This document shows, piece by piece, positions 1 through 36,496 of a stretch of 64,000 bases of DNA. The position numbers and the translations under genes were made by a program. Below the pieces are notes generated by a model. The model was not told the origin of the DNA, ran no database searches, and worked only from the letters and a program-made list of their open reading frames with translations. Within the stretch, counting starts at the first letter, position 1. Each line of letters starts with the position of its first letter. This stretch comes from a virus, in the IMG/VR virus record IMGVR_UViG_3300028920_001037, positions 11,063 to 75,062 of that record; one strand, written 5' to 3'.

Positions 1-328
1 CTTGAGCGTCTGCACCAAAAGCTATTTGAGTTAATGTATCTGGCATCTTATCCATTATCTTTTTGAATGTATCAAAAGACATATTAATTCCGTTAGGATT
101 ATTACTTTTGTAACAGAAAGGGCATAACTTTCCACCGGGTCCAGCACATTTAGTTGTAACTTCAATATCTAGAATCTCTGCACCGAATTCACAGAAGTCT
201 GGATCTCTTTCCTTTGTACTTCCCCAACGAGCAAATATACCATTCTTCTTATTGAATACATAATTATATTCGGGTGAAGAAAGAATTTTATAAGTTTTAT
301 TTTCTTTAATCTCGTAAGTTGTTTCCAT
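1..328 (-). CDS. Radical SAM protein, N-terminal part (runs off the window edge)
   Basis: Hand translation from ATG at 328: METTYEIK...EILDIEVTTKCAGPGGKLCPFCYKSNN...QIAFGAD; Cys triad C-x7-C-x2-C; not in the ORF track because truncated. Confidence 0.75.
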   Translation of the reverse strand, partial: METTYEIKENKTYKILSSPEYNYVFNKKNGIFARWGSTKERDPDFCEFGAEILDIEVTTKCAGPGGKLCPFCYKSNNPNGINMSFDTFKKIMDKMPDTLTQIAFGADAQ

Positions 329-596
329 ACTTAACTTCCTCATGTCTTGTATCATAAATTTCAAAATCTAACAGTTTATGTCTTGGTGTAGTAATTAACA
401 GAAATAGACCATCATGGTCACCTTTCCAATTAATATCAATGTCTATCCTAAGTAGTCCAAATCCTGTGTGCAATCGAAAACATTTCTTAGTGATAGTTAT
501 TTCACATCCGAAATTATAAACCGGATATTCATCCCAATTTTTTTCCGAACATATTTCTACATGACAATTTTTACTAACTGGAAAATCAATATTCAT
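306..596 (-). CDS. Hypothetical protein
   Basis: 96-aa ORF coupled to the pncB stop; no motif recognised. Confidence 0.5.
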   Translation of the reverse strand: MNIDFPVSKNCHVEICSEKNWDEYPVYNFGCEITITKKCFRLHTGFGLLRIDIDINWKGDHDGLFLLITTPRHKLLDFEIYDTRHEEVKYGNNLRD

Positions 597-1843
597 TAAT
601 AAACCGTCTCCACATCTGTTTGTTCAGGTTGAAAAATGCTCTGATACATTTGTATATAAGCTGGAGTTCCTGTTGCTTTCTTAATGTTATCGCTAAGCTT
701 AACTGTTTGTTCTTCATTGACACCAGTTGCTTTAATAACTATACTTAATGGTTTAATTCCAACAGAATTTGTAAGATCTGTTCCCCAACCGAAATATACT
801 TTAAACTTATCTTTAAACTCTTCTTGTATTTTAACCATCTTATCTACATTCAAACCATCCGAAAAGATAACCTTTTTCGTTTTAGTATCTATTCCGAACT
901 TCTTATAATGTTCAATCATTTTATAACCGAACTTAATTGGGTCGCCCGAATCTTGTCTAACACCTACACATTTAGTTGCAAGTTCTTCGTCAAAGTCTTT
1001 AAGGAAAGCATTAGTTCCAAACGTATCTGTAAGCATGATACTTAATGGTTCACCATAATAATCATACCATTCGTTCATAGCTTTCTTTTGGGCATCTAAT
1101 AAACTCTTAGAATCAGGAAGAGTTAAACAATCTCCTGCACTTCTTTCATACTCAATAGCTGCCCTAACCATAAAAAATTCATGAGCTTGTGTTCCTATTG
1201 GATTAAGACCAAGTTCTTTAGCCATTAAATAGTTCGATGTTCCCAATATATTATTAGGACATTCATCTCTACAAATTTCAAGAATAGCTTTCTGCCAGTT
1301 ACCCGAATGTCTTCGTCTTGTTCCAAAGTCTATAAACTTAATATCATGTTTTTTAATTATCTTTATTTTTTCTTGAAGCTTTCCAATAGCATCATTTCTC
1401 ATTTTATAAATACAAGTATCGGTTAATCCTTCTAATACCGATCTAGCAAACAGTTCGTTTATGATACCAAGAATCATTGTTTCATATAAAATCGAACATT
1501 GCCAACGATTAGTAAAATGCAAGTTGAGTTTATCATGTTGTAATTGATATGTAAATTCTGTATCATATTTTTGTCTTGCCAACATATTAATAAAATGGTC
1601 TTTATATTCTGGTTGGTTTTTTAAATATGTCAAATCATCATAGCTAAAGCGCAGGCTTTTCATATGATTGATTTGTTCAACTAGTTCATCCATGTCAAGA
1701 AAATTGGCTAGTTTTATTGACATTGTTCTATTACTAAACGAATAAGTAACTTTCTCATTTGGATACAGGTCATTAACAATTTGGCACATTGTTAGTTTAT
1801 ACTTATCCAAATCCAACATGCTATCAATAATAGGTTTATCCAT
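596..1843 (-). CDS. pncB: Nicotinate phosphoribosyltransferase
   Basis: DLDKYKLTM, DFGTRRRHS, GTSN, GTQAHE (phospho-His), LTDTFG, VRQDSGDP, FSDGL, FGWGT, KLSD motifs. Confidence 0.93.
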   Translation of the reverse strand: MDKPIIDSMLDLDKYKLTMCQIVNDLYPNEKVTYSFSNRTMSIKLANFLDMDELVEQINHMKSLRFSYDDLTYLKNQPEYKDHFINMLARQKYDTEFTYQLQHDKLNLHFTNRWQCSILYETMILGIINELFARSVLEGLTDTCIYKMRNDAIGKLQEKIKIIKKHDIKFIDFGTRRRHSGNWQKAILEICRDECPNNILGTSNYLMAKELGLNPIGTQAHEFFMVRAAIEYERSAGDCLTLPDSKSLLDAQKKAMNEWYDYYGEPLSIMLTDTFGTNAFLKDFDEELATKCVGVRQDSGDPIKFGYKMIEHYKKFGIDTKTKKVIFSDGLNVDKMVKIQEEFKDKFKVYFGWGTDLTNSVGIKPLSIVIKATGVNEEQTVKLSDNIKKATGTPAYIQMYQSIFQPEQTDVETVY

Positions 1844-1864
1844 ATAAAAATCCTTTCATATTAT

Positions 1865-1893
1865 AATATAATACAAAATGGGTTAAATGTCAA
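1865..1893 (-). promoter_or_regulatory. Sigma70-type (early) promoter
   Basis: TTGACA-17bp-TATATT upstream of pncB; one of seven matching copies. Confidence 0.8.
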
Positions 1894-1903
1894 GGTAAAT
1901 ATA

Positions 1904-2101
1904 TTAGTTACTTATTTTATTCTTTAGCCAGTAATCTCTAAATATAAAAAGCTTATCAGCAGCTTCATGTAGGTCTGCATCGGTAATTCCGTTGCCAACT
2001 TCGATTAATGTATCTAATACATCTTCAATAATTAGCCGGGCATCATCGTCTGTTAAATTCTTAACATCTTTATTTTTTTCTAAATCAAAAAAATATTTCA
2101 T
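1904..2101 (-). CDS. Hypothetical protein
   Basis: 65-aa ORF with GGAG RBS. Confidence 0.55.
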   Translation of the reverse strand: MKYFFDLEKNKDVKNLTDDDARLIIEDVLDTLIEVGNGITDADLHEAADKLFIFRDYWLKNKISN

Positions 2102-2362
2102 TTATTCTCCAATTGAGAGGTCAATTGTTTTATTAGGGTCATCAATATTAAAATCTTTAATTGGTGGGAACTGAATTAGTTGCAGACTTTCATCTTCAAA
2201 AAAGAAGTTTAGCTTTCCACTTCCATCACCATCAACGCTAATTTTAATATCACGACTAGCTCCCTGTCGGCCAAGACTTTGAATTGCAGAACATACTTTA
2301 AAGAATTCTGCAAGTTCAGTCTTACTACCCATTACAATCATTTTAGCTTTAAGTACATCCAT
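2102..2362 (-). CDS. Hypothetical protein
   Basis: Start reassigned to ATG 2362 (AGGAG RBS upstream); contains VDGDGSG. Confidence 0.55.
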   Translation of the reverse strand: MDVLKAKMIVMGSKTELAEFFKVCSAIQSLGRQGASRDIKISVDGDGSGKLNFFFEDESLQLIQFPPIKDFNIDDPNKTIDLSIGE

Positions 2363-2363
2363 A

Positions 2364-2537
2364 TTATCTCCTAAAATATTTTCTATGTTCTTCTGGCACA
2401 AGTACATGAGAAATAGGTTTAACTATTTCCCCTGCTTCAGTTACTGGTATAGCAACTAATCTTTTAATATTATTAACAATTAAAAGTGTATATAGTTTAT
2501 CATCCCTAGTATCTTTATATACTTTATATCTTTTCAT
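2364..2537 (-). CDS. Small hypothetical protein, possibly leaderless
   Basis: ATG 2537 lies about 7 nt downstream of the -10 box at 2544-2549. Confidence 0.4.
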   Translation of the reverse strand: MKRYKVYKDTRDDKLYTLLIVNNIKRLVAIPVTEAGEIVKPISHVLVPEEHRKYFRR

Positions 2538-2543
2538 ATATAT

Positions 2544-2572
2544 AATATAATACATTATTATTTAAAAGTCAA
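2544..2572 (-). promoter_or_regulatory. Sigma70-type (early) promoter
   Basis: TTGACT-17bp-TATATT. Confidence 0.78.
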
Positions 2573-2581
2573 GTTAAAAAT

Positions 2582-2685
2582 TATAAATATATTAAAGTAG
2601 GGAGACAGATGGTTGCAACCATTTTCTTTGCCTGAACAAAGATTATCTCTACATTAACTTCAATCACCTTTCAGGAGGTATTATG
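2582..2685 (+). ncRNA. Late promoter plus structured 5' leader (three-way junction, kissing loop over the RBS), copy 1
   Basis: TATAAATA 2582-2589; P1 GTAGGGA/TCTCTAC; GAC; P2 AGATGGT/ACCATTT; P3 TCTTTG-CCTGAA-CAAAGA; TTA; P4 ACCT-TTCAGG-AGGT just before ATG 2683. Confidence 0.7.
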
Positions 2686-3588
2686 TTTTCAACAGCGGAT
2701 TTTATTAAAAGAGCTAAACTTATTCATGGTAATAAATATGATTATTCTAAAACTAATCATATCAATTCAAAAACTAAACTTTGTATTATTTGTCCAAAAC
2801 ATAAAGAATTTTGGACTCTTCCACATAATCATTTAAAAGGTCAGGGTTGTCCAAATTGTTACAATGAAATTCGAGGAATCAAATCGAAAATATCTAAAAA
2901 ATTTTTTATTGATTCTTGTAATAAAATTCATAATAACAAATATAAATATGATATAAATACTTTCAATGGAATGACTAGCCGTATTAAAATTAAATGCCCT
3001 ATTCATGGTTTATTTTTTAAAATTGCATATGCTCATTTAACTTCTAAACAGGGTTGCCAAAAATGCTCTTATGAAAGCCAACTAAAACCTTTAAGCAGTT
3101 TTATAACCGAATCTAATAAAATTCATAATAATAAATATAAATATAACAATTTTATTTATTTAGGAGCATTTAAAAAAAGTTATATAACATGTTATATACA
3201 TGGCGATTTTTTACAAGATCCGCATTCACATTTAAAAGGCCATGGTTGCCCAAAATGTAATTCATCTAAAGGTGAATTAGTTGTTGAACAATATTTAAAA
3301 GAACATAATATTAAATTTAAACGTCAATATAAATTTAAAGATTGTAAAGATAAAAAACCTTTACCTTTTGATTTTTATTTGCCTAATTTTAATATATGTA
3401 TCGAATATGATGGTGAACAACATTTTGGTAAATGGTTTACAAAAATAAAAATAGATTTTAATATTATAAAATTACATGATAATATAAAAAACGAATATTG
3501 TAAAAATAATAATATTAAACTAATAAGAATACCTTATACTAAAATAAATAAAATTAATACTATATTATCTAATATAATGAACTATTAA
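2683..3588 (+). mobile_element. Free-standing putative homing endonuclease (repeated C-x-x-H...GCxxC modules plus C-terminal PD-(D/E)XK/Vsr-like domain)
   Basis: Three HxNKYxY...ICPxH...HL..GCPxC repeats; LPFDFYLP..NICIEYDGEQH; LIRIPY; oriented opposite to its neighbours. Confidence 0.8.
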
Positions 3589-4045
3589 AAGCTTTATAAA
3601 ATATATTAATAGCTTTTTGTTTTAACATATCATCAACAGTATCAAAATACCAACTTACCATATTACATATAAAAGGATGCTTTTTATATAGTTCATTATC
3701 GCTTATAAGAATAATAGGTTTCCTAAATTCATACGCAAAAGCTATTTCCATGATAGTTCCTAACATAGGTCTTTCAACACCAAAGTTTTCCATATAAGCT
3801 ATAAACAAATCACATGTTTTAATAGCTATATAATCTTTATCTAATATAGCTTTAGTTGGTACATTAGATGTTAATCCATCTGGTGATACATTATCTTCAC
3901 CATTCAAAGGGTTTAAAAAACAAAGGTCACCATAATTTTTACCTGTATTTTTCCAGTTAGTATAATGTTTAATTACTTTATGGCGCCACTCTCTACATTT
4001 TTCAATATTTTTTCCATCGATTATACCCGCAAGATAAACTTTCAT
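3569..4045 (-). CDS. Nucleoside 2-deoxyribosyltransferase / nucleotide N-glycosidase-like protein
   Basis: VYLAG, WR, LNP, D...I..CD, GT.MEIAFA...KPII. Confidence 0.75.
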   Translation of the reverse strand: MKVYLAGIIDGKNIEKCREWRHKVIKHYTNWKNTGKNYGDLCFLNPLNGEDNVSPDGLTSNVPTKAILDKDYIAIKTCDLFIAYMENFGVERPMLGTIMEIAFAYEFRKPIILISDNELYKKHPFICNMVSWYFDTVDDMLKQKAINIFYKAFNSSLY

Positions 4046-4047
4046 AA

Positions 4048-4572
4048 TTAAAACCTCCTTATATTAACATCGGCTCTTTCAATTGAAGCCTTTACTGTAT
4101 CTTCTAATGTATTATGAATCTTTGGTATACTTACTTTACCAAAACCTTTATCCAACCAAACAGCTTCCCACATAATATCTGAATAACTAATTCTATATGC
4201 ATTATCAGGTCTACCATAAACAACCTTATATAGTTCTCTACCAATCCAATATCCCAGTTCCCAATTAGTTGTAAGTCCAATTAATTCTCTCGTTCTTGGA
4301 ATCCAAAACAAAATACAATTGGCTCTTTTCAATCCATTAAACTCCCAAAGTGGAATCCAAGATTTGTTTTTATCTGATTCAGTTTTACTTACAAACTCGG
4401 GAACAACTAATGAACCGGTGAATCCTTGTCTTTCAAACTCTTCAATAGCAGCGAATCTCCACGAAGTTAAATGGGTTTGGTTACCTCTAACAGTCGGCCC
4501 TGCCAAAAAAATAACCGGACCTTTTACATTTTTAACCTGTTCTTTTGATTGTTCATACCTGAATACATTCAT
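4048..4572 (-). CDS. Nucleoside 2-deoxyribosyltransferase-like protein (second, divergent)
   Basis: IFLAGP, SWR, WE..GL..A..ILFWIPR, TTNWELG. Confidence 0.75.
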   Translation of the reverse strand: MNVFRYEQSKEQVKNVKGPVIFLAGPTVRGNQTHLTSWRFAAIEEFERQGFTGSLVVPEFVSKTESDKNKSWIPLWEFNGLKRANCILFWIPRTRELIGLTTNWELGYWIGRELYKVVYGRPDNAYRISYSDIMWEAVWLDKGFGKVSIPKIHNTLEDTVKASIERADVNIRRF

Positions 4573-5681
4573 TATAACCTCACTCTTGTTTTACTTTCTT
4601 CCCAACCCTGATTAGTTATTTCAACAAATTTTACTTTCTTTCTAAACTCTTCCCAGTTTCTACAACCAGCATAATATGAAACAGCAGATTGTAAATTGCC
4701 AATAATGTTATTAACAATTTCTTTTGTTTCACCTGTATATGGGATTTGACCTGATTCACCTTCAATTGAAATCGCAGTCTTTTCACTTTTAAGTTTACTT
4801 GAAGCTTCCTTACTTGCCATTCCACTATATGAAACCCATCTAATTTCTTTTGGATTCTCTGTTAAATCACCAGCTTCATCTAACTTATCTCCGTTAGAAA
4901 GACTAGTTGAGGCCAGCATCTTTCCCAACATACACATATCTGCACCGGCAGCTATTGCTTTGCATATATCTCCCGGTGTTTCTATTCCACCATCGGCAAT
5001 TAGATATGCTGTATCTTTAACTTTTGCACAATCAAAAACAGAAGTCAATGTAGGTAATCCAAAACCAGTATTAGTTCTTGTTGTACAAATACTGCCACCA
5101 CCAATACCAACTCTTATAAAGTTAGCACCAGCATCCTGTAGTCTTGCATATCCACTCCTTGTAGCAACATTTCCGGCCATGATATTTGTTGTTACCCAAT
5201 TTGGACTGTTTTTTGAAATAAACTTAATAGTTTCAATGCTTGCTTTGGTATCTCCATTTGCAACATCAACAACAAATCCAAAATTATATCTATTGGCATT
5301 TTTATATTCTAATAATCTTTCAATCCATTTTCTCCATTTAGCAACTATTCCAACAGCCAAAAAAACTGTAGGTTGTTGTTCTTCTTTAAATTCACAATCT
5401 TCATAGAATTGGATTTGTTCATTAACATTTGCAAAACATCTATCAATAGTTACTGGTAAATTAAATTCATGTGATAGACATTTAATCATTTTAACACTAC
5501 AAACTTTATCCATTGGTGAATTAATAATTGGCGCCTTTACTATAAAAGATTCACAGTTAGCTGGTAAGAAATCAGAACCATATTTATAGCTTATATCAGC
5601 ATCCGTTAGATGATCTAAATTAGAATTTCTAGGAACCAACAACACATCATTGTACGACAATACTCTACGAATGTCATTCAT
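4572..5681 (-). CDS. GMP reductase / IMP dehydrogenase family (no CBS domains; GMP reductase favoured)
   Basis: YNDVLLVP, SPMD, DVANG, AGNVAT, GIGGGSICTTR (catalytic Cys), IADGGI..GDICKA, YSGMAS; no Arg-Tyr flap dyad seen. Confidence 0.88.
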   Translation of the reverse strand: MNDIRRVLSYNDVLLVPRNSNLDHLTDADISYKYGSDFLPANCESFIVKAPIINSPMDKVCSVKMIKCLSHEFNLPVTIDRCFANVNEQIQFYEDCEFKEEQQPTVFLAVGIVAKWRKWIERLLEYKNANRYNFGFVVDVANGDTKASIETIKFISKNSPNWVTTNIMAGNVATRSGYARLQDAGANFIRVGIGGGSICTTRTNTGFGLPTLTSVFDCAKVKDTAYLIADGGIETPGDICKAIAAGADMCMLGKMLASTSLSNGDKLDEAGDLTENPKEIRWVSYSGMASKEASSKLKSEKTAISIEGESGQIPYTGETKEIVNNIIGNLQSAVSYYAGCRNWEEFRKKVKFVEITNQGWEESKTRVRL

Positions 5682-5683
5682 TT

Positions 5684-5878
5684 TTAATACCCCAATTCTC
5701 TTTCCGATATAAGTGTACGTGCATCATCAAACATTACAGCTAAACTATCATAAACTTCATAATCTTCATCAGAACAATCGTTCATAATTTCATGAACTTC
5801 ATTTCTTTTATTTAAAAGATAACTTTGAACTTCCTGTTTAATTTTTTCAGCGTTTGTCATACTTTTATTTAAATCCAT
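5684..5878 (-). CDS. Hypothetical protein
   Basis: Start reassigned to ATG 5878; abuts the next gene. Confidence 0.45.
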   Translation of the reverse strand: MDLNKSMTNAEKIKQEVQSYLLNKRNEVHEIMNDCSDEDYEVYDSLAVMFDDARTLISERELGY

Positions 5879-6188
5879 GTTTAATAACTCCTTCACCATG
5901 ACAACATTTACAAGTATCATATCCATCAATATCATATGATGATAACACACAATCCGTTGATGTTATTATTATTGTACCTAATGTGCAGTCTGAATTTCCA
6001 ACATTGATAATTTCAAGTTCGCACCAACATATCCCACAACCTTTAAGTTTAAGTAAAACAGATTCATCTATAAAACTACCTTTACCAGATTTTATTGAGT
6101 GTGAATATAACTTCCTATATTGTTTTGGTTTTATATTATTACCATAACATATAGACGATACTTTAAGGTGTTGGTTCATTTCATTCAT
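5865..6188 (-). CDS. Hypothetical Cys-rich protein
   Basis: CGIC and CKCC..EG motifs. Confidence 0.5.
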   Translation of the reverse strand: MNEMNQHLKVSSICYGNNIKPKQYRKLYSHSIKSGKGSFIDESVLLKLKGCGICWCELEIINVGNSDCTLGTIIITSTDCVLSSYDIDGYDTCKCCHGEGVIKHGFK

Positions 6189-6190
6189 AA

Positions 6191-6595
6191 CTAACCTTTC
6201 TCATATGGAAAAACCACCCATTTTGTATTCATCTTAGCATAGAAGTCCGGTTCAATTGGACTATCTTTATGTTTAAAAATGGTAGCTAACTTACATTTAG
6301 TCTTATCAAAGTTAAGTGAATTAATTGTTTCACCTGTATCACAAATGTCATCGACTATCAACATATTATTACATAACCTACAGTTAAGAATCTCTACAAA
6401 TTCTATACCTAATTGATGTGATATGATAGTTGCTGGAAATAAACCTCCACGGGGTATGCCATATACGCAATCAAACTTACTTTTAGATTGTTTGATTTTC
6501 TTTATCAATCTATTAATATAATATATATATTCGTCCCAGTCAAGTAAAAATTTACCTTTACCTCGACTTAGACTTCTTTGTCTGGCATTTTTCAT
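6191..6595 (-). CDS. Type I purine phosphoribosyltransferase (Gpt/Hpt-like)
   Basis: GIPRGG, PRPP loop LIVDDICDTGET, WVVFPYE. Confidence 0.85.
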   Translation of the reverse strand: MKNARQRSLSRGKGKFLLDWDEYIYYINRLIKKIKQSKSKFDCVYGIPRGGLFPATIISHQLGIEFVEILNCRLCNNMLIVDDICDTGETINSLNFDKTKCKLATIFKHKDSPIEPDFYAKMNTKWVVFPYEKG

Positions 6596-7331
6596 TTTGA
6601 ACCTTTAAATTCAATATTTCATCAAAACTATCAGACCAATTCTTTTTACAATAATCAGTTGTTACAAACCATTTAAGCCATCTACGATTAATTTCAGAAG
6701 TTTCAACACGAATATATTTAGGATTACGTTCTAATGTATGTCCAACAAAACCATCTTTGTTTTCGTATTTCTTTCCATTTTTAAACATAAAATATTTCTG
6801 ATGATTATTATATTCTTTTTTGGTTAGAAAATCTTCATCAGTCCATTCACCATAAGTCTTTAAAAACTTTTTGCCGATATTAATTAACAATTCTTCATAA
6901 GTTCTACCATTAGCATCAACACCGTGATACAATTGCCATTCTCTTATGTCATGATATTTTGATAAGTCTTTACCATGAAAAACTACAAAAGACATTTCGC
7001 CCCAGTATTCAACATGGTCAAACTTCCATTTCTCACCATAAATAACTTCATAAGGAACATCAGCATATATTAATGCAGAGAAATCCTTTTCACCTGATTC
7101 TTTTAGTTCCTTATCAAAGTATTTTTTATACTTAGCATAATTCTTTTTATTATAAGGAATATGAATTCCATCCTTACCAGCCCAATGTGAATAACCATGT
7201 TTACAAACTTCTTGTAGACTATGCCACAATAATTGCTCAACTGTATAAACAAGTGAACATGAAGTTGCTGGGTGCTGATTAAGCTTCGACAATATGTTAT
7301 TATATTTTTTACATATCTTTCTAGTAATCAT
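6558..7331 (-). CDS. Hypothetical protein
   Basis: 257-aa ORF in operon; no motif recognised. Confidence 0.6.
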   Translation of the reverse strand: MITRKICKKYNNILSKLNQHPATSCSLVYTVEQLLWHSLQEVCKHGYSHWAGKDGIHIPYNKKNYAKYKKYFDKELKESGEKDFSALIYADVPYEVIYGEKWKFDHVEYWGEMSFVVFHGKDLSKYHDIREWQLYHGVDANGRTYEELLINIGKKFLKTYGEWTDEDFLTKKEYNNHQKYFMFKNGKKYENKDGFVGHTLERNPKYIRVETSEINRRWLKWFVTTDYCKKNWSDSFDEILNLKVQNEKCQTKKSKSR

Positions 7332-7579
7332 ATTACATCACCATTTTCCTTTATTTTTAGATCCTCATAATGTGCAAGTATTCTACGTTCAATTTCATTT
7401 GCACATTGTCTTAGTTCTCCAATGAAATTTTTATAGTTATTATAACTTGGTTCAACAGTATCTTGACAGAATTTATATAGAACATAGTTAAGTTTACCAT
7501 CAGGTTTGACACCAGTATGTATCATATTACGAACAACCATATTCATTGTTGGTCTATCTTCTTTTTTAATATATGGCAT
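7328..7579 (-). CDS. Small conserved-type phage protein
   Basis: MPYIKKEDR...G.LNY...YEDLKIKENGDV; AAGGAG RBS before ATG 7579. Confidence 0.65.
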   Translation of the reverse strand: MPYIKKEDRPTMNMVVRNMIHTGVKPDGKLNYVLYKFCQDTVEPSYNNYKNFIGELRQCANEIERRILAHYEDLKIKENGDVI

Positions 7580-7598
7580 ATTAACTCCTTTCAATTAT

Positions 7599-7627
7599 AA
7601 TATAATATATTTCAATAGAAATGTCAA
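7599..7627 (-). promoter_or_regulatory. Sigma70-type (early) promoter
   Basis: TTGACA-17bp-TATATT. Confidence 0.78.
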
Positions 7628-8181
7628 GTGATATGATTTGTTCTAGCAAAATATTTCATTATCAATAATGCTTTAGCACCAAATTTTTTATCTTTTTGTA
7701 ATAGTAATTCTTTAACTTCTCCTTGATTCAATAAGAATTGTTCTATGTCTTCTGAAGCTTCTAAATTATTTATAGACAATTCTCCATTTGCTTTTACAAA
7801 AGCTATAGCAATACTTTCATCTGTAATACCAGGAGAATTAAAAACAAATGGAGTTACCTCATAAATTAACTCAAGGTCTAATCCAGTTTCTTCTTTTAGT
7901 TCTCTCCTAATACAATCTTCAACGGGCTCGTTTTCATCAATGAGTCCAGCAGGGAATCCCCATTCATAATCTTTAATGGAAACCCTAAACTCTTTTATGA
8001 TACATATCTTATTATTATCAGTTTCAGATTCAACAATAGGAATAATCATAACTGCTTTAATATTATTGGGTCTACTAACCCAACTCCATTCTTTATGATT
8101 ACCTTCATTATCTTCATATTGAGTTGAATGAAGCTGAAGATATTTAGATACATTTCTGCAATCGTCTTTCCAAATTTTCAT
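7624..8181 (-). CDS. Nudix hydrolase, ADP-ribose pyrophosphatase-like
   Basis: Nudix box GLIDENEPVEDCIRRELKEETG; EFR and SPG..DE typical of ADPRases. Confidence 0.82.
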   Translation of the reverse strand: MKIWKDDCRNVSKYLQLHSTQYEDNEGNHKEWSWVSRPNNIKAVMIIPIVESETDNNKICIIKEFRVSIKDYEWGFPAGLIDENEPVEDCIRRELKEETGLDLELIYEVTPFVFNSPGITDESIAIAFVKANGELSINNLEASEDIEQFLLNQGEVKELLLQKDKKFGAKALLIMKYFARTNHIT

Positions 8182-8768
8182 CGGTATAATCCATTCTGTT
8201 TAATATATTTTATAACATTTTTATACATAATTTTTTGTTGTAAGTCATTATCATTGTTAGCAATAGCTTCTCTTGCTTGTGTGGATGAATAATCTTTTTT
8301 GTGTTTTTTAAATACAACAGTAGATGGATCCCATTTCAATTCTTCATCATTATAACCTTCACGTTGAAAAACTATAAAAGGAACAGTCTTTAAAAGATCT
8401 TCCCACTTATACCATTTATCAATTTCAATTGCACAATCCATTCCAATAATTACATAAAAGTTTATATGCTTATAAGATTCCATTAAACTTCTTATTGTAT
8501 TATAAAATTTACCATCAGACTTCTTTTGAATTTCATGTAAACAAACCAACATATTATCTTTATGTTTTATTGAACGATAAATCATTTCTATCCTATGAAA
8601 AGAATCAGTAGATATTTTTCCAAGGTTATGAGAGAAACATGGCATAAACCAAACTTGATCAACCAAATCATATGATAAAACTGTTTCTGCAACTTCAACA
8701 TGACTCTTAGTACAAGGGTTAAAAGATCCACCAAAAATACCTACACGTATCTTTTGTTTATTCTTCAT
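8178..8768 (-). CDS. nadD: Nicotinate-nucleotide adenylyltransferase
   Basis: GIFGGSFNPCTKSH (T/HxxH), R..M, IIGMD...I.KWYKW, R.GY, YSST..R, V..YI.QNGLY. Confidence 0.88.
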   Translation of the reverse strand: MKNKQKIRVGIFGGSFNPCTKSHVEVAETVLSYDLVDQVWFMPCFSHNLGKISTDSFHRIEMIYRSIKHKDNMLVCLHEIQKKSDGKFYNTIRSLMESYKHINFYVIIGMDCAIEIDKWYKWEDLLKTVPFIVFQREGYNDEELKWDPSTVVFKKHKKDYSSTQAREAIANNDNDLQQKIMYKNVIKYIKQNGLYR

Positions 8769-9651
8769 TGAAAATATCTTTCCTATTAATTACAATAGGC
8801 CAGTTTCTTTTAAAATGTGTTGCTTTATATCTTTTGATAACTGGATGATTACTATATAGTTCTCTAAAATTAACAAAGCTTTCATAGTCTTCAAGTCTAT
8901 TCTTATACTTCAACCAATCATCCCAAGTAAAACTATCTTGGTCTTTTGTTAACCAAGTTTTTAAAAGCAGATCAACTTCTTCATATGATTTTGCACCAAG
9001 TTGATCTAAATCTGAATTAGAAACACCAAGACCGTCTGTTGGATTTGCTTCAACACAAATTCCTAAAGATGTTATTTTGTCTTGATCTTTTAAACAACTA
9101 TATTCATTAACAACAATCCATCTTGCAACTTCATATACCTCTGTTTTCCAAAGCTGTTGAATCATTCCATAATCTCCAACATCACCACAAAGCGTCCAGA
9201 AACCTAAATAATATTCAGTTAAGTTATCAGTTGAAAGAACTATTCCTTTTTTTACTTGTGCAAGATTATAAAGATAAATCATTCTTAATCTGGCTTTAAT
9301 GTTACCTCTTCTTATCTTGTCGGCTTTAGAATCCCACTCGACACAATCATGTAAATCATCTGTCAATTGATAATAAGAATGTATAAGACTTTGATCTTCC
9401 AAGAAATCGTGACAAAAGGATTCTCCAACTAATTTTGCTCTTTCAATTTCGTCTTGTTTGTTTGACTCAATTGGAAGACTTCTACCAATAAGAGGAATAT
9501 CCAATTCATCACAAACAGGTCTTGCTAATGCACAACATAAAGCTGAATCAATTCCACCAGAAACTCCAATGACTAAAGATTTTATATCATATTTAATAAT
9601 ATAATCCTTTAATTCTTTTTGGATATTTTTAACAACCAGTTCACAATTCAT
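8758..9651 (-). CDS. nadE: NH3-dependent NAD+ synthetase
   Basis: GVSGGIDSA, GNIKARLRM..LY, STDNLTE..LGFWT..GD, KTEV, PTDGL, D.DQLG. Confidence 0.92.
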   Translation of the reverse strand: MNCELVVKNIQKELKDYIIKYDIKSLVIGVSGGIDSALCCALARPVCDELDIPLIGRSLPIESNKQDEIERAKLVGESFCHDFLEDQSLIHSYYQLTDDLHDCVEWDSKADKIRRGNIKARLRMIYLYNLAQVKKGIVLSTDNLTEYYLGFWTLCGDVGDYGMIQQLWKTEVYEVARWIVVNEYSCLKDQDKITSLGICVEANPTDGLGVSNSDLDQLGAKSYEEVDLLLKTWLTKDQDSFTWDDWLKYKNRLEDYESFVNFRELYSNHPVIKRYKATHFKRNWPIVINRKDIFNEE

Positions 9652-9660
9652 ATTAATTTC

Positions 9661-9864
9661 TTACCAATCTTCTGAATGTGTTAAATCAAATTCTTCACCA
9701 CAAGCACACTTAATAGTTTTAATACAACCAAGTCCTGTGGGTGTAAAACAATATGTAAATCTTCCACCAATTGCTCCCTGTTTCATTGGGTCTGCAAACG
9801 GGCAAGTTTTATTATGTTCTTCTTTCCAATCTTGCAGTTCTTTATTATCCATCCGAAATTGCAT
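9661..9864 (-). CDS. Small hypothetical protein
   Basis: GAIGG...FTPTGLG....C.CG. Confidence 0.6.
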   Translation of the reverse strand: MQFRMDNKELQDWKEEHNKTCPFADPMKQGAIGGRFTYCFTPTGLGCIKTIKCACGEEFDLTHSEDW

Positions 9865-9873
9865 ATTAGTTCC

Positions 9874-10185
9874 TTATGGCAATATGATTCCACTATCGGT
9901 TTTCTTTGCAGCTATTGGTGGTTGACCACCCTGAATAACCTGAACTACTTGCTGTACATTATGATGAAGAACATTCATATTATTTGCAATGACATTAACC
10001 ATCTGAGCTAATCCACCCATATCATTACCAATGAAATCAATTGCCTCAAGCAATTCACCTTTAGTAACAGTTTCATCGGGATTCTCACTAAGCTTCTTAT
10101 GGAAAGCTTCATATGCTTTTTTATGTTCTTCCATTGCTTTTTTCATTTCTTCTTCAGTCATCTGTTTCTGTTCTTGTTTACTCAT
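9874..10185 (-). CDS. Hypothetical coiled-coil protein
   Basis: 103-aa ORF, ATGA overlap with upstream gene. Confidence 0.55.
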   Translation of the reverse strand: MSKQEQKQMTEEEMKKAMEEHKKAYEAFHKKLSENPDETVTKGELLEAIDFIGNDMGGLAQMVNVIANNMNVLHHNVQQVVQVIQGGQPPIAAKKTDSGIILP

Positions 10186-10703
10186 AGTTTGCTCCTAACT
10201 AGATTAAAATTATCTGGTAATGTATTCATTTTATCTTTTACTTGTTCCCAAGAATATGGGTAAAAATTATTAGTATCTACTCCACAATCAAAACTTTTAC
10301 CCCAAGGTTCTAACATTCCATGCGAGTGGCCATAAAGCGAAAAAGCATTATAATGAGATTTGTGCCATATCCTCATAGAACAATGAGATAAAGTTATATT
10401 TATTCCTTCTATTTTGGTATTTAATAATTGATTATATGAAGCAAATAAATGTTTACAGTTTTTAGTATTTTTATCATGAGAACCTAATATTAAATGAATA
10501 TTGCCATTTAATCTTCTTAAATGTTTTTGAACGTCACCAAAAGCAAAATCACCTAAATGATATACTATATCATTTTTTCTGACTACAGAATTCCAATTTG
10601 TAATAATAACCTCATCGTGTTCTTCTATAGAACTAAACGGTCTATTACAATATTTAATTATATTTCGGTGTGAAAAGTGCGTATCGGCTGTAAAATATAT
10701 CAT
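10182..10703 (-). CDS. Calcineurin-like metallophosphoesterase
   Basis: ADTHFSH, HLGDF, GSHD, SH, GHSH; start at ATG 10703 overlapping the GIY-YIG stop (ATGA). Confidence 0.88.
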   Translation of the reverse strand: MIYFTADTHFSHRNIIKYCNRPFSSIEEHDEVIITNWNSVVRKNDIVYHLGDFAFGDVQKHLRRLNGNIHLILGSHDKNTKNCKHLFASYNQLLNTKIEGINITLSHCSMRIWHKSHYNAFSLYGHSHGMLEPWGKSFDCGVDTNNFYPYSWEQVKDKMNTLPDNFNLVRSKL

Positions 10704-11317
10704 AATTGTTTTCTCAATTTCCACAGGCTAATATTTAATTTTCTACTGGCTTCTCTTAGCGATCCATATTCTATACCGTTTATAACTATTTGTATTGATT
10801 TTGGGTGTTCTTTTCCGGGTTTAAATGACGTTTTTAATTTTTTTCCATATAAATAATGTTCTTTTCCTCTATGATAATATCTATTAGCTATTTTCTTTTT
10901 TGAATCTTTTGAATGATGTTTTCCATAAAAGGGATTATTTTTTCCTAAAATATTTGGTCTTGGCCCCTTTAAGTTTTCAATATGTTTTTTTGATTTTGGT
11001 TTCCCTAATAAAGCCATTTTAATTTTTTGTTTATGAGTTTCTGATAAACTATCAACTCCATAACTTCCCAATCTCAAATTATAACCAATATTTGGATTAA
11101 TAGATTTTAATTTTTTAATCCAATAAATTTCTCTTTCATCAACTCCAGATATACAATGTTCAAGTATCTCTCTTTTAAAATTTTCTTTACCATATTTTTT
11201 AATATCTTCATTCAATTTAGATCCAGAACCTAAATATCCATCATCTGCACTACTATAATGTTTACCTACATAAATCTTTCCATTAACTAGATTTGTTGTT
11301 TTGTAAATAATACTCAT
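10700..11317 (-). mobile_element. Free-standing GIY-YIG (Seg-like) homing endonuclease with NUMOD3-like repeats
   Basis: IIYKTTNLVNGKIYVGKH, YLGSG, F.REILE, E.YWI, GYN; NPFYGKHHS. Confidence 0.9.
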
Positions 11318-11420
11318 AAGATACCCCCGATTAAGGTTTAAGTTGGAGATACCGGATAATCCTAAATCGGATAGGAAAGGTGATCAAACCCTGTCTCCAA
11401 GTATCCTATAAGTATTTATT
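11315..11420 (-). ncRNA. Late promoter plus structured 5' leader, copy 2
   Basis: AATAAATA; P1 GGATAC(T)TGGA/TCCGGTATCT; GAC; P2 AGGGT/ACCTT; P3 TCCTA-TCCGATT-TAGGA; TTA; P4 ACCT-TAATCGG-GGGT before ATG 11317. Confidence 0.7.
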
Positions 11421-11423
11421 ATT

Positions 11424-11717
11424 TTAAACCAATCCGAAGTGAACCAATAATTCATCATCAATCTTTCTATCTGGATTTCTATCTTTAATTATTTTAAAAC
11501 TGGAAAATTCTGCTTCTTTTAATTCATGTGTTATATATTTATCACATATATGTAACAGTCGAGTACTAATTCTACCTGGTCGTGAATTATAAAGATCTGA
11601 TGGACATACAAAAATTAATTCTTCATCGTTTTCACGAGCTTCTTCTCTTAATTTATATAAAGCTAAATCAAAATCTTTTACTAAAATATTTTTTAAATCA
11701 TCCCAAGTGACTATCAT
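11424..11717 (-). CDS. Hypothetical protein
   Basis: 97-aa ORF in operon. Confidence 0.55.
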   Translation of the reverse strand: MIVTWDDLKNILVKDFDLALYKLREEARENDEELIFVCPSDLYNSRPGRISTRLLHICDKYITHELKEAEFSSFKIIKDRNPDRKIDDELLVHFGLV

Positions 11718-11718
11718 A

Positions 11719-12012
11719 TTAACGACAACGACATATACTATAACATTTACTAGAAGTTTCCCAACCTAAATATCTACACCCATTACTATAAGTATGAATA
11801 AAAGCCGAGTCACCAATACCAACATCAACTAAAGTATATAGTATAAAAAATCTCTTATCAGTCTTAATCTGCATTTTAACAGGCTCATTCCATGAAGTCG
11901 GAACAACACTAGCATCTTTTATTATTCCAACATATTCCTTATTAACCATTATGGGTTGTTCAGAACAACCAATCAAAAACAATGCTACAACTAACAATAT
12001 CAATTTCTTCAT
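11719..12012 (-). CDS. Putative lipoprotein
   Basis: MKK plus hydrophobic stretch plus lipobox LIGC. Confidence 0.7.
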   Translation of the reverse strand: MKKLILLVVALFLIGCSEQPIMVNKEYVGIIKDASVVPTSWNEPVKMQIKTDKRFFILYTLVDVGIGDSAFIHTYSNGCRYLGWETSSKCYSICRCR

Positions 12013-12014
12013 AA

Positions 12015-12482
12015 TTACCTCAATCCATAGAAATAGAGTAAAGCCGCCCAGCCAGAGGGCAACATATTTGGAGCTTCTTTTAATTCTTTACCATATTTAA
12101 TTGCCATTTCTAACATAAACTTTGCATGAAAGAAAGCTTCCAACAAAGGTCTTGTATTCTTTTCCCAATGTTTGCCATGAGAAAGATGCTTATGGTTGGT
12201 TCCGTTTTTAAATATTTCCATAAAGGTTTCATTAAACTTTGTATCTTTAGGAGCTAAAGATTTTAACACATCAACAATCTTAATAGTTAGGTTTTGAATG
12301 TAATAGACCTTAGCTGAATAATGATAAAACCTATAGATACTATCTTCATAATTCCAATGACTGTTAATATCATCCCATAAATTATCTAAATCAGATAATC
12401 TATTTTGGATATTAGTTAACAGTTCTTGATTGCGTTTGGCTAATTCTTCAAAGTAGTTATTGTTCATTATTAAAAAACACAT
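12015..12482 (-). CDS. Hypothetical protein
   Basis: YRFYH.S.KV, LEAFFHAK, LPSGWAALLY; function unknown. Confidence 0.6.
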   Translation of the reverse strand: MCFLIMNNNYFEELAKRNQELLTNIQNRLSDLDNLWDDINSHWNYEDSIYRFYHYSAKVYYIQNLTIKIVDVLKSLAPKDTKFNETFMEIFKNGTNHKHLSHGKHWEKNTRPLLEAFFHAKFMLEMAIKYGKELKEAPNMLPSGWAALLYFYGLR

Positions 12483-13009
12483 TTAACAAAGTGGCAACCG
12501 GCATCTTTCATTTCTTGAATAGATGTTTCTGTATTTTTTTCATCAACACCAGCGATGGCATTCTCAAAAATATATACATCAATATTTCTTTTACGGAGTC
12601 CAAGTGCCGCGGCCTTAATACATACATCTGCGGCTACTCCTGCCAGCCATACTTCTGTAACCTTCTTATCTTTCAACCACTTATCAATATCTTTGTTGCC
12701 AAGTTTTCCATCGAATACATCATAAGTTTTCTTATCAAAGTAAACAGCCTTTTTAGTTTTAGTCTTAGCTTCTGGAATAAGTTCAGCGCCTGGCGTATCT
12801 GTGATACAATGAGGTGGAAATGTTTTAAATTCGGGGTCAGAACTATCATGTTGGTCTTGTGTAAAGAAAATATCACATTTGCGCTGTACTGCAAAACTAA
12901 CAAGGTTCTTTATATTTTTCTTAATGCTTGTCGCATTAGGAACATATAAATTTCCATTTTCATTCATAAAGTCATTCTGCACGTCTATGAAACCAAACAC
13001 TCTGTTCAT
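12470..13009 (-). CDS. pncA: Nicotinamidase (isochorismatase family)
   Basis: IDVQNDF, G.L.V, DQH, FPPHC...T.GA, K, GVAADVC (catalytic Cys); start at ATG 13009 after AAGGGG. Confidence 0.9.
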   Translation of the reverse strand: MNRVFGFIDVQNDFMNENGNLYVPNATSIKKNIKNLVSFAVQRKCDIFFTQDQHDSSDPEFKTFPPHCITDTPGAELIPEAKTKTKKAVYFDKKTYDVFDGKLGNKDIDKWLKDKKVTEVWLAGVAADVCIKAAALGLRKRNIDVYIFENAIAGVDEKNTETSIQEMKDAGCHFVKCVF

Positions 13010-13044
13010 ACGAACCCCTTTCAAATTGTTATATTTCTATATAT

Positions 13045-13073
13045 AATATAATTCTTTTTAAACGAAAAGTCAA
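13045..13073 (-). promoter_or_regulatory. Sigma70-type (early) promoter
   Basis: TTGACT-17bp-TATATT upstream of pncA. Confidence 0.8.
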
Positions 13074-13087
13074 GTCTTTTAGTTTAG

Positions 13088-13468
13088 TTATATTTTTAGA
13101 TCATCAATTATCTTTTGTTGTTTTTCCATTTCAATTTCTGTTCTCTCTCTAGCCTGTTCGTTTCTCATATTTTCATATCTTGTTTCTAATTCTTGTAGCT
13201 TTGCTGTAGCTATTGCCATTTTAAAGATATTAGCTAAGATAGCCATCGATTCTTTCTGCTTAACATTTTGTAGTAAATATAATAACATATCAAAAAACTT
13301 TACATATGTTAGTCTTTTACTTTTAAGCGATACAATTATATTTGCAACTATTCTTTTTTGAACCGTTGCAAACCTTAAATTAACCTCAAGTTTCAAAAGA
13401 TATTCTAAGAAGTCTTTTATATGTTCTTCTTTTGGTTTTAATGTTCTTGATACTCTTGGTATTTGCAT
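13088..13468 (-). CDS. Hypothetical protein
   Basis: 126-aa ORF after the ligase C-half. Confidence 0.55.
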   Translation of the reverse strand: MQIPRVSRTLKPKEEHIKDFLEYLLKLEVNLRFATVQKRIVANIIVSLKSKRLTYVKFFDMLLYLLQNVKQKESMAILANIFKMAIATAKLQELETRYENMRNEQARERTEIEMEKQQKIIDDLKI

Positions 13469-13471
13469 TTA

Positions 13472-14311
13472 TTACATTCCTATCATTTTAAAGAAATCTT
13501 CCTCACTAATGATTCTAATTCCTAGTTGATTTGCTTTCTTAGTCTTTGAAGATGTTGAACTAGGATCTGCTTGAATTAATCCAGATACACCCTTCTTAAC
13601 CGTCTTTTCACAAGAACCACCGTTCTCATAAACCAATTCCTGCAACATGTTTCTTGTGTACCTGTTTCCGTTTTCATCGATTCTCTGAACTGCACCAGTA
13701 AATACAAAAACTTCTCCATCCAATTGACTTGAACTCACTTCAACCTCCTTAGGTTTTTCAACACCTTTTATTGTGATAACTTCCAATAATTTTTTAATTG
13801 TAGTTTTCTTTTTGGACAATCCATAAACAATTTCTTCTGCAACTCTATCACCAATTCCTTTAATACGGACAAGTTCTTCCTCACCTATATTTAACATTTT
13901 ATCCAGAGTATCAATTCCATTTTCAATCAATAATTCTGCTCTAGACTTTGAAAAATTAGGAATGTTTAATCCATCAATGAAGGTTGCTAAATCTATTTCT
14001 TTCTTGTCATTAAAGTTCTTAATAATCTTCTTAGCTGACTTAGTTCCCATGCCCTGAAGATTTGCTATTCTGTTTTCATCAAGTCGATAGAAATCTGAAG
14101 GGTCATAGACTATTTCAGCATTTTCAAACAATTCAATAGTCTTTATACTTATTGCATCAATGTCAAGTGCATCAACCCATTTCTGAAGATTGCCTATCCT
14201 TAATCCTTTACATTCAGTATTTTCACACATTAAATAAGTTCCGTCGTTATTTAATTCTTCATTACACATTGGACACCATAAAGGCGGTTTGAAATATTTT
14301 TTATTCTCCAT
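13472..14311 (-). CDS. ligA: NAD-dependent DNA ligase, C-terminal half (Zn finger, HhH, BRCT)
   Basis: CPMC...C.N..C, GMGTKSA, L.IP, IKGIG HhH repeats, BRCT FVFTG..R...GG...K.KKA..LGI.IISE. Confidence 0.88.
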   Translation of the reverse strand: MENKKYFKPPLWCPMCNEELNNDGTYLMCENTECKGLRIGNLQKWVDALDIDAISIKTIELFENAEIVYDPSDFYRLDENRIANLQGMGTKSAKKIIKNFNDKKEIDLATFIDGLNIPNFSKSRAELLIENGIDTLDKMLNIGEEELVRIKGIGDRVAEEIVYGLSKKKTTIKKLLEVITIKGVEKPKEVEVSSSQLDGEVFVFTGAVQRIDENGNRYTRNMLQELVYENGGSCEKTVKKGVSGLIQADPSSTSSKTKKANQLGIRIISEEDFFKMIGM

Positions 14312-14314
14312 AAA

Positions 14315-14460
14315 CTATTCCCTTCTTTTCAAATATAATTTAAACTCTTTTTCTGTTTTTCCTTTTTTACTAAACTAATTTTATGTTTTTTAAGATGCGC
14401 GTTAATTATTTGTTTAAATTTTTGACCACAAATTTTACATCTAACAAAATTTTGATTCAT
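14315..14460 (-). pseudogene. Internally deleted homing-endonuclease remnant
   Basis: MNQNFVRCKICGQKFKQIINAHLKKH (C2H2-like) stops at 14329; another frame reads SKKGKTEKEFKLYLKRRE* (HNH-like C-terminus) ending at 14315. Confidence 0.6.
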
Positions 14461-14560
14461 AAAACCTCCACATTAGGTTAATAGCAGGAAGCATAAAGTA
14501 ATCCTTATGTGGAAAGGAAACGGAATGATCGCTAGTCCTTTATACTCCCTATTATTTATA
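14458..14560 (-). ncRNA. Late promoter plus structured 5' leader, copy 3
   Basis: TATAAATA 14560-14553; P1 AGGGAGTATAAAG/CTTTATGCTTCCT; GAC; weak P2; P3 TCCTT-TCCACAT-AAGGA; TTA; P4 AACCT-AATGTGG-AGGTT before ATG 14460. Confidence 0.72.
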
Positions 14561-14563
14561 ATT

Positions 14564-15691: not shown

Positions 15692-15719
15692 CTACAACTC
15701 CTTAATTTTTACAGTTATA

Positions 15720-15790
15720 ATATTCCTATGTGTGCCATATTCCTAATCAGTAATATTGCCCATATAGGAATATAGAATATTGACCATATA
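15720..15790. repeat. Short direct and inverted repeats in the ligase 5' leader
   Basis: ATATTCCTA at 15720 and 15737, inverted at 15765-15773; AATATTG[C/A]CCATATA at 15752 and 15776. Confidence 0.5.
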
Positions 15791-15792
15791 AT

Positions 15793-15821
15793 AATATAAT
15801 AGTTTATTGTTGAAATGTCAA
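15793..15821 (-). promoter_or_regulatory. Sigma70-type (early) promoter
   Basis: TTGACA-17bp-TATATT upstream of the ligase. Confidence 0.8.
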
Positions 15822-15824
15822 GGG

Positions 15825-15869
15825 AAAAATAAAGAAGGATGTAACCCTCTCGTGAGTTAGGTTACATCC
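15825..15869 (-). terminator. Intrinsic terminator
   Basis: 10-bp stem GGATGTAACC/GGTTACATCC followed by TTCTTTATTTTT on the minus strand. Confidence 0.8.
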
Positions 15870-15914
15870 CATCTATGAATAACGCTCCGATGTCTATTAC
15901 TCGTTGCGTAGTTC

Positions 15915-16307: not shown

Positions 16308-16309
16308 TT

Positions 16310-16513: not shown

Positions 16514-16514
16514 A

Positions 16515-36460: not shown

Positions 36461-36496
36461 TATTTATAATATAATATATTATTCGTAAAAAGTCAA
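36461..36496 (-). promoter_or_regulatory. Tandem sigma70-type and late promoter
   Basis: TTGACT-17bp-TATATT (36496-36468) immediately followed by TATAAATA (36468-36461). Confidence 0.72.

Follow-up and report, generated by a model that had tools for sequence, protein, structure and literature searches.

A nicotinamide salvage gene set of the deamidating type in a fragment of an uncultured marine-sediment phage

NAD genes of the phage fragment

The stretch of DNA considered here, called the window, is 64,000 nucleotides (nt) long and corresponds to bases 11063-75062 of the 75,062-bp IMG/VR virus record IMGVR_UViG_3300028920_001037. It carries five genes connected with nicotinamide adenine dinucleotide (NAD): pncA, pncB, nadD, and nadE, which together specify a predicted route from nicotinamide to NAD+ through deamidated intermediates, and a gene encoding a Nudix hydrolase that resembles ADP-ribose pyrophosphatases. 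All five were recovered exactly where a preliminary description of the sequence had placed them, at full length and on the minus strand (Table 1). This fragment of an uncultured, large marine-sediment phage carries a real and intact NAD salvage set.

CheckV puts the completeness of the record at 29%, which would imply a genome of approximately 260 kb. The source DNA is present in two marine-sediment metagenome runs. Its GC content is approximately 30%, and the NAD genes match the rest of the phage in this respect. All sizeable open reading frames (ORFs) of the record are on the minus strand, the treble-clef endonuclease-like gene in Table 1 being the only sizeable plus-strand gene of its region. 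The phage character of the record is evident from PHROG matches to a tail fiber, homing endonucleases, a CobS-like ATPase, a tRNA nucleotidyltransferase, and an NAD-dependent ligase. At the DNA level, the record has no close match among deposited phages.

Table 1. Features of the window, ordered by position (aa, amino acids)
Feature	Position	Strand	Basis or remark
pncB, type I (ATP-coupled) nicotinate phosphoribosyltransferase, 415 aa	596-1843	-	NF003704, TIGR01514, PF04095 + PF17767
TTGACW-N17-TATATT, eight copies	1865-1893, 2544-2572, 6515-6543, 7599-7627, 13045-13073, 15793-15821, 36468-36496, 59150-59178	-	exact motif; first copy (TTGACA-N17-TATATT) directly upstream of pncB, fifth (TTGACT-N17-TATATT) upstream of pncA
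Treble-clef (DUF4379/DUF723) endonuclease-like protein	2683-3588	+	only sizeable plus-strand gene of region
Two tandem nucleoside 2-deoxyribosyltransferase-like (DrHyd/NDT superfamily) genes	3569-4572	-	PF05014, PF15891; module membership uncertain
GMP reductase/IMP dehydrogenase family enzyme	4572-5681	-	PF00478 1e-63; under all NCBIfam equivalog cut-offs; outside NAD route
Xanthine/guanine-type phosphoribosyltransferase, 134 aa	6191-6595	-	PF00156 2.6e-12, NF006613 5.8e-15, phrog_8995 5e-17
257-aa protein	6558-7331	-	between DUF6899 and Gpt-like genes
Nudix hydrolase, ADP-sugar/ADP-ribose pyrophosphatase type, 185 aa	7624-8181	-	PF00293 3e-15
nadD, nicotinate-mononucleotide adenylyltransferase, 196 aa	8178-8768	-	TIGR00482, PDB 1KAM
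nadE, single-domain NH3-dependent NAD+ synthetase, 297 aa	8758-9651	-	TIGR00552, PF02540
Metallophosphoesterase	10182-10724	-	between pncA and nadE; PDB 1XM7 (Aquifex aq_1665) 7.5e-13; module membership uncertain
150-aa protein	12015-12467	-	begins 2 nt past pncA stop
Terminator-like hairpin	12043-12063
pncA, nicotinamidase, 179 aa	12470-13009	-	PF00857, PDB 1ILW/1IM5, 3PL1
NAD-dependent DNA ligase, C-terminal piece (HhH + BRCT)	13472-14311	-	HHH_5, HHH_2, BRCT matches
43-codon ORF in ligase spacer	~14329-14460		CxxC...HxxxH pattern
NAD-dependent DNA ligase, N-terminal piece (adenylation + OB domains)	14564-15691	-	PF01653 1e-47, PF03120 7e-22, phrog_3869 3e-99

PncB scores above the cut-offs of two nicotinate phosphoribosyltransferase (NAPRTase) models, with 409 bits versus 379 for NF003704 and 343.5 versus 269.55 for TIGR01514. 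Its N-terminal domain matches PF17767 at 4.7e-21, and Nampt-type models reach only 15 bits. The top PDB match is 1YBE (6e-70, residues 4-408), and the protein aligns end to end with solved NAPRTases. Three motifs, GTxAHE (H221), GTRRR (R176-R178), and DSGD (D298-D301), align with 1YBE and 3OS4 and are invariant among the relatives in alignment A1. We take the GTxAHE histidine to be the autophosphorylated residue and the other two motifs to bind phosphoribosyl pyrophosphate (PRPP). The ATG start codon, at 1843, is preceded by an AAAGGA ribosome-binding site. Assignment of this protein as Nampt or Namat was rejected on the family scores and on the absence of Adps from the record.

NadD passes its family cut-off marginally (TIGR00482, 115.9 bits versus 112.45). 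Its top PDB match is the Bacillus subtilis nicotinate mononucleotide (NaMN) adenylyltransferase 1KAM (9e-25, full length), and its GGSFNP..TKSH and SSTQAR segments align with the (H/T)xxH and SxTxxR nucleotidyltransferase motifs of that enzyme. The phage NadD may prefer NaMN over nicotinamide mononucleotide (NMN). NadE reaches 119.3 bits on TIGR00552 (cut-off 63.65), has one Pfam domain, PF02540, and no glutaminase (CN-hydrolase) domain. Because it is a single-domain protein, it is predicted to be of the NH3-dependent type. Its SGGIDS P-loop (SGGxDS) aligns with 3FIU and 2E18, and NH3-dependent synthetases are its top PDB matches.

PncA scores 114 bits on PF00857, versus a cut-off of 27, and its top PDB matches are nicotinamidases: 1ILW/1IM5 at 2e-20 and Mycobacterium tuberculosis PncA, 3PL1, at 1e-17. 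An Asp-Lys-Cys triad is present and aligns with the PncA proteins of M. tuberculosis and Pyrococcus horikoshii, the latter triad presumably being D10, K94, and C133. An Asp-His-His metal site separates nicotinamidases from other isochorismatase-like hydrolases. It too is present in the phage protein, with QDQH...PPHC aligned to RDWH...PRHC of 1IM5. An AAAGGGG ribosome-binding site precedes the pncA ATG start.

The preliminary description read these four genes as a complete deamidating set that runs from nicotinamide through nicotinate, NaMN, and nicotinate adenine dinucleotide (NaAD) to NAD. Family scores and conserved active-site residues support that chemistry well. The same description raised the alternative that the PncB-like enzyme prefers nicotinamide, as in the known phage pathway NARP2. 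An amidated route of that kind is disfavored because PncA and NadE, both present here, would be unneeded in it and because PncB scores as a NAPRTase.

The closest structural relatives of the Nudix hydrolase are ADP-sugar and ADP-ribose pyrophosphatases. Specifically, its top PDB match is the human ADP-sugar pyrophosphatase NUDT5 (1e-14), followed by Escherichia coli NudE. The Nudix box, GX5EX7REUXEEXGU, is complete (GFPAGLIDENEPVEDCIRRELKEETGL, aligned with the NUDT5 box), and a downstream Pro-Gly, aligned with NUDT5, corresponds to the ADPRase-type Pro that lies approximately 15-16 residues past the box. No Nudix protein from deposited cultured phages is close to it. Release of ribose-5-phosphate and AMP, as the preliminary description proposed, is the activity predicted from these matches and conserved residues. 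The Nudix start overlaps the nadD stop by 4 nt and nadD overlaps nadE by 11 nt, and because of these overlaps we consider nadE, nadD, and the Nudix gene to be one translationally coupled unit.

The sigma-70-like motif TTGACW-N17-TATATT has eight exact matches, all on the minus (coding) strand, versus 0.22 expected. Six of the copies lie within the first 16 kb of the window, and most extend as TTGACWTTT...ATTATATT. A general sigma-70 scan was not richer than shuffled sequence. The motif is a candidate early-promoter consensus of the phage. Genes pncB and pncA and that of the ligase each have a copy 20-35 nt upstream (15793-15821 in the last case). Because pncA and pncB lie directly behind strong sigma-70-like promoters, both are probably expressed early, a timing that we read from promoter type. 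No regulator of the NrtR, NadR, or NiaR type was found near the NAD genes, and Rfam gave no match in positions 1-17000 of the window.

Recurrence in other phages and relation to known pathways

A single-protein scan of viral contigs returned no close relative. An alignment-based scan of IMG/VR with PncB was then used and detected PncB relatives on more than 570 viral contigs; whole-record hidden Markov model searches covered 49 other PncB-bearing metagenomic viral records. NadE was found in 30 of the 49, an isochorismatase-family gene in 24 (23 above the Pfam cut-off), and a NadD-like gene in 17 (7 above the TIGR00482 cut-off). All four, PncB included, occur in eight or nine records. Co-occurrence in phages, a point raised in the preliminary description, is thus seen in these records, and because other viral contigs repeatedly have these partners near PncB, the clustering of NAD genes is not due to chance.

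Compact versions of the set exist. Within approximately 5 kb, viral locus L022 has the order PncB-NadD-PncA-NadE, and L046 the order PncB-NadD-NadE-PncA. Viral contig L040 (14.4 kb) encodes, within 5.5 kb, a PncA-like protein, one intervening protein, NadE, an endonuclease, NadD, Nudix, and PncB; its NadE and Nudix are 42-43% identical to the window proteins. Within L040 1-6774, a tRNA-His guanylyltransferase (Thg1) gene lies directly upstream of the NAD cluster, and Thg1 is likewise encoded a few kilobases from the NadD-Nudix-PncB genes of Agrobacterium phage Atu_ph07.

The nearest relatives of the window's PncB are metagenome sequences at 52-55% identity, on short contigs. Among named sequences, the nearest come from metagenome-assembled genomes (MAGs) of the candidate phyla radiation (CPR)/DPANN type, at approximately 40-47% identity, and no cellular PncB relative exceeds 55%. 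In a quick IQ-TREE phylogeny, viral PncB proteins fall into several clades, and that of the window sits among unlabeled metagenome sequences, with no nameable donor.

Two deposited phages carry comparable genes, their functions being assigned by database annotation. On one strand of Sinorhizobium phage Phosso (PV764938, 268-274 kb), approximately 6 kb encode an NDT-like protein, a hypothetical protein, a PncA-like hydrolase, an adenylyltransferase, a MutT-like Nudix, PncB, and an NH3-dependent NadE: the same five functions as in the window. Phage Atu_ph07 (NC_042013, gp237-gp242) encodes a cytidylyltransferase, an ADP-ribose pyrophosphatase, and PncB close together. Both differ from the present phage in being unrelated alphaproteobacterial jumbo phages, with 25-34% protein identity to the window and a PncB in a different clade.

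Phage NAD modules of this general kind have been described. In 174 "NAD-jumbo phages", Li et al. 2024 (Microbiome, PMC11662467) described salvage or Preiss-Handler pathways, including pncB-nadD-nadE clusters (e.g., Kuafu_71 and Kuafu_19), and they mentioned phage pncA. In these phages, NAD-dependent ligases are frequent, NAD-consuming enzymes are many, the salvage routes complement those of the host, and counter-defense against Sir2-type depletion was suggested from sequence. The present phage shares with them PncB, NadD, and NadE together with an NAD-dependent ligase, and the same counter-defense hypothesis applies. The NAD-jumbo phages derive from animal guts and have predicted Bacteroidota hosts, whereas the present fragment is from marine sediment. 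Jumbo phages have genomes over 200 kb; the 75,062-bp fragment would imply the approximately 260 kb given above. PncA and the ADP-ribose-type Nudix are present here too, so the predicted starting point is nicotinamide rather than nicotinate, and the genes lie scattered across 12 kb, not in one tight cluster. The gene set is a further instance of a phage NAD module already described from sequence. What is distinctive is the start from nicotinamide, the free ADP-ribose-type Nudix coupled to nadD, and the dispersal among early salvage genes.

Three phage pathways that rebuild NAD+ during infection have been named. NARP1 (Adps plus Namat) and NARP2 were defined by Osterman et al., who also pointed to further possible routes, the deamidating one not among them. 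NARP2 consists of Nampt/NadV and the bifunctional Nmnat-Nudix NatV of Vibrio phage KVP40 (Lee et al. 2017; Osterman et al. 2024), depends on PRPP, and in experiments overcame Thoeris as well as other NADase systems (10.1101/2024.02.11.579819). It also raises NAD+ when no defense system is present (10.1101/2024.02.11.579819). The name NARP3 already belongs to the PnuC plus NadR pathway (PMC13464706). Thus, the suggestion of the preliminary description that the present set is a candidate third NAD-reconstitution route has been overtaken, both by NARP3 and by the 2024 publication of phage pncB-nadD-nadE genes with the counter-defense idea (PMC11662467). The survey of Iyer et al. 2022 lists NadV, NadM, and NadR only, and we found no experimental test of a phage deamidating NAD route in the literature.

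Analogous to NARP2, the present set would perform a phage-encoded, PRPP-dependent nicotinamide salvage and pairs an adenylyltransferase with an ADP-ribose-type Nudix. The adenylyltransferase-Nudix pair, found as separate genes in several phages, parallels the fused NadM-Nudix of KVP40. NARP2, however, takes two amidated steps via NMN, whereas four steps via nicotinate, NaMN, and NaAD are predicted here, requiring PncA and NadE; the Nudix is encoded on its own, and PncB is of the NAPRTase rather than the Nampt type. In NARP1, ADP-ribose is reused directly via ADP-ribose pyrophosphate, whereas the Nudix predicted here would destroy it. NARP3 imports nicotinamide riboside, and the present record contains no PnuC. 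Finally, the four enzyme families and their motifs are those of bacterial PncA-PncB-NadD-NadE salvage (Enterobacteria, Bacillus), the differences being that here they are virus-encoded, stand behind phage early-type promoters, and are accompanied by a Nudix.

Neighboring genes and the split ligase

The NAD genes lie in a wider nucleotide-metabolism region that also holds a DUF6899 protein, several small genes without assignment, a GIY-YIG endonuclease, and the oppositely oriented treble-clef endonuclease. A DUF4379-domain protein splits the NadE-NadD cluster of L040 as well (L040 3238-4227), again on the opposite strand.

Two neighbors have ties to PncB elsewhere. Metallophosphoesterase homologs occur within 10 kb of PncB in seven other viral loci, and in one of these, L037 (metallophosphoesterase at 9079-9690), the order NDT-like, metallophosphoesterase, PncB is contiguous; the metallophosphoesterase may be an accessory of the NAD module. 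The first of the tandem nucleoside 2-deoxyribosyltransferase (NDT)-like genes has weak similarity to a trypanosomal NDT (E 0.02-0.03), with the GT..E motif aligned. NDT-like genes adjoin PncA or PncB in Phosso, L037, and two other phage loci (G037, i.e., L044, and G035, i.e., L042), and in L088 they adjoin the family of the 257-aa protein. Only ARC-type DrHyd domains have been reported in viruses (Iyer et al. 2022).

The GMP reductase (GMPR)-like gene also has counterparts near PncB, in L012, L013, and L015. Together with the xanthine/guanine-type phosphoribosyltransferase (PRT), it suggests phage-directed purine interconversion in a 30%-GC genome (4572-6595). By its family matches, the PRT would, like PncB, consume PRPP rather than make it. 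It was considered as a hidden PRPP synthetase, as was the 257-aa protein, and both were rejected: the former is of the xanthine/guanine type, and the model of the latter has no PRT- or Prs-like match. The 257-aa protein has 142 cluster representatives in a 1.8-billion library and no Pfam entry. Its confident AlphaFold2 (AF2) model (predicted local distance difference test score, pLDDT, 93.6) has no significant PDB match, the best Z score (5.2) being to a sub-structure resembling a double-stranded RNA-binding domain. In the related viral locus L090, a homolog stands one gene upstream of PncB.

The 150-aa protein behind pncA belongs to a very conserved family, with more than 800 members at 50-64% identity and without a Pfam entry. 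Its AF2 model is all-helical (pLDDT 94). Foldseek against the PDB gave nothing at E<=0.001, and the best VIA match (Z 7.2) was a generic helical bundle, with some HEPN-like rows among the matches. In other viral loci, no member of this family was seen near PncB.

The NAD-dependent ligase (LigA) genes adjoin the NAD module immediately upstream, in two pieces parted by a 252-nt spacer. This looks like the genes-in-pieces arrangement left by a mobile element. The spacer contains a TATAAATA box and the 43-codon ORF listed in Table 1. LigA releases NMN, not nicotinamide. No NMN deamidase (CinA/PncC) was found in the 75-kb record, and LigA is encoded by 5 of the 12 near-complete PncB-bearing phage genomes. 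For these reasons, the part of the preliminary description that had the route supply the phage's own ligase is a weak link, although the ligase is indeed present and adjoining.

Of other functions sought in the 75-kb record, whose 29% completeness makes absence weak evidence, none was found: these were PnuC and Prs/Adps homologs, toxin-type ADP-ribosyltransferases, Macro and SIR2 domains, protein kinases, and PP2C.

Possible roles of the gene set

The proposed scheme is as follows. PncA would hydrolyze nicotinamide to nicotinate and NH3. PncB would condense nicotinate with PRPP, driven by ATP, to yield NaMN, which NadD would adenylate to NaAD. The NH3-dependent NadE would then amidate NaAD to NAD+, possibly consuming NH3 derived from PncA. 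The most likely task of the Nudix, whose gene is coupled to nadD, is to cleave free ADP-ribose, with AMP and ribose-5-phosphate as the products, as an unfused counterpart of the NARP2/KVP40 NadM-Nudix. PRPP would come from the host or from the unrecovered part of the phage genome. Overall, the scheme would maintain or raise the NAD+ pool of the infected cell.

We consider it fairly probable that the four enzymes form a working deamidating salvage of nicotinamide in four steps, with a separate Nudix likely splitting ADP-ribose, and that this module could blunt NAD-depleting defenses. NAD glycohydrolysis yields nicotinamide and ADP-ribose, the very compounds that the module would take in, which makes a counter-defense role plausible.

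Several observations weigh against this reading. First, the five genes are scattered across 12.4 kb of the minus strand (596-13009), among unrelated genes and two homing endonucleases. The preliminary description placed all of them downstream of early-type promoters; the motif is real and stands directly upstream of pncB and pncA, but the nadE-nadD-Nudix unit has no copy of its own. The nearest upstream copy is at 13073, and the terminator-like hairpin lies between the pncA promoter and this unit. Second, PncA is under the cut-off of the NCBIfam equivalog (NF008623, PRK11609; E. coli-type), with 58.9 bits versus 174, and the Nudix is under those for NudE (56 bits versus 169) and YffH/AdpP (41 versus 79.55). 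Since both fall short of equivalog level, their exact substrates are putative. Third, each NAD made in this way consumes PRPP and several ATP, a much higher price than that of NARP1. As the preliminary description stated for the window, no PRPP synthetase is encoded, and this holds for the whole 75-kb record, though with the record 29% complete this absence is weak. PRPP synthetase is found in 2 of the 12 near-complete PncB-bearing phage genomes, in one of them 8 kb from a complete four-enzyme cluster. Finally, nothing links the module specifically to defense over general NAD supply.

Indeed, general NAD supply fits the data equally well as an anti-defense role. In the corresponding alternative, to which we assign somewhat less than an even chance, the genes form a general auxiliary metabolic module that supplies NAD(P) to the phage's NAD-using enzymes (the ligase, the IMP dehydrogenase/GMPR-type enzyme, and sugar-modifying enzymes of the glycan operons) and assists in hosts with weak salvage, any effect on NADase defenses being incidental. 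The setting of the module agrees with this: it lies within a wider early nucleotide-salvage region of Gpt-like PRT, GMPR-like, and NDT-like genes, and the ligase adjoins it. The many NAD consumers and host-complementing salvage of the NAD-jumbo phages (Li et al. 2024, PMC11662467) point the same way, as does the increase in NAD+ that NARP2 brings about when defense is absent. Less readily accommodated is that PncA and the ADP-ribose hydrolase act on both products of NAD glycohydrolysis. Moreover, the NMN that ligase turnover yields is not recyclable by the module, the record has no PncC, and LigA is missing from the majority of the near-complete genomes.

A broader claim would hold that PncA, PncB, NadD, NadE, and a free ADP-ribose pyrophosphatase constitute a fourth distinct NAD+ reconstitution pathway that beats Thoeris, DSR, SIR2, and SEFIR-type depletion, with PncA-derived NH3 feeding NadE, and with the NDT/DrHyd-like glycosidases and the metallophosphoesterase processing ADP-ribose-derived or nucleotide by-products. 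We regard this extended scheme as doubtful.

It is rather unlikely, in our estimate, that the Nudix functions outside salvage, by degrading ADP-ribose-derived immune signals, clearing toxic free ADP-ribose, or cutting Ap3A, NADH, or NAD-capped RNA, roles of the kind proposed for many Nudix proteins of phages. The scores under the NudE and YffH cut-offs leave room for such activities, and the NCBIfam name for the E. coli NudE type, "ADP compounds hydrolases", points to a broad range of substrates. Iyer et al. 2022 likewise see phage Nudix, Macro, and SLOG domains as directed mainly against soluble ADP-ribose signals. Arguing for a place within salvage are the translational coupling to nadD, the identity of the top structural relatives, and the reappearance of the NadD-Nudix pair in L040, Phosso, and Atu_ph07, with its parallel in the fused protein of KVP40/NARP2.

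It is very improbable that the genes are housekeeping genes taken from a host not long ago, or the result of an assembly chimera, and lack a selected phage role: although CPR/DPANN-type MAGs supply the nearest named relatives of PncB and viral PncB proteins occupy several separate clades, no cellular relative is closer than 55% identity, the genes match the phage in GC content, none of the five reading frames is broken, strand and promoter motif are shared with the rest of the record (the motif recurs at 36496 and 59178), the same stretch occurs in two marine-sediment runs, and the set is found again in many viral records.

We therefore return to the deamidating salvage module that could blunt NAD-depleting defenses. 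The five genes make up a concrete test set, and natural compact versions exist in L040, L022, L046, and the cultured phage Phosso, in which knock-outs are possible. If the module does rescue NAD+ under NADase attack, a host-type four-enzyme route would join the three known phage NAD-rebuilding pathways. Such a role would also explain why PncB is found with NadE, PncA, and NadD on hundreds of large-phage contigs.

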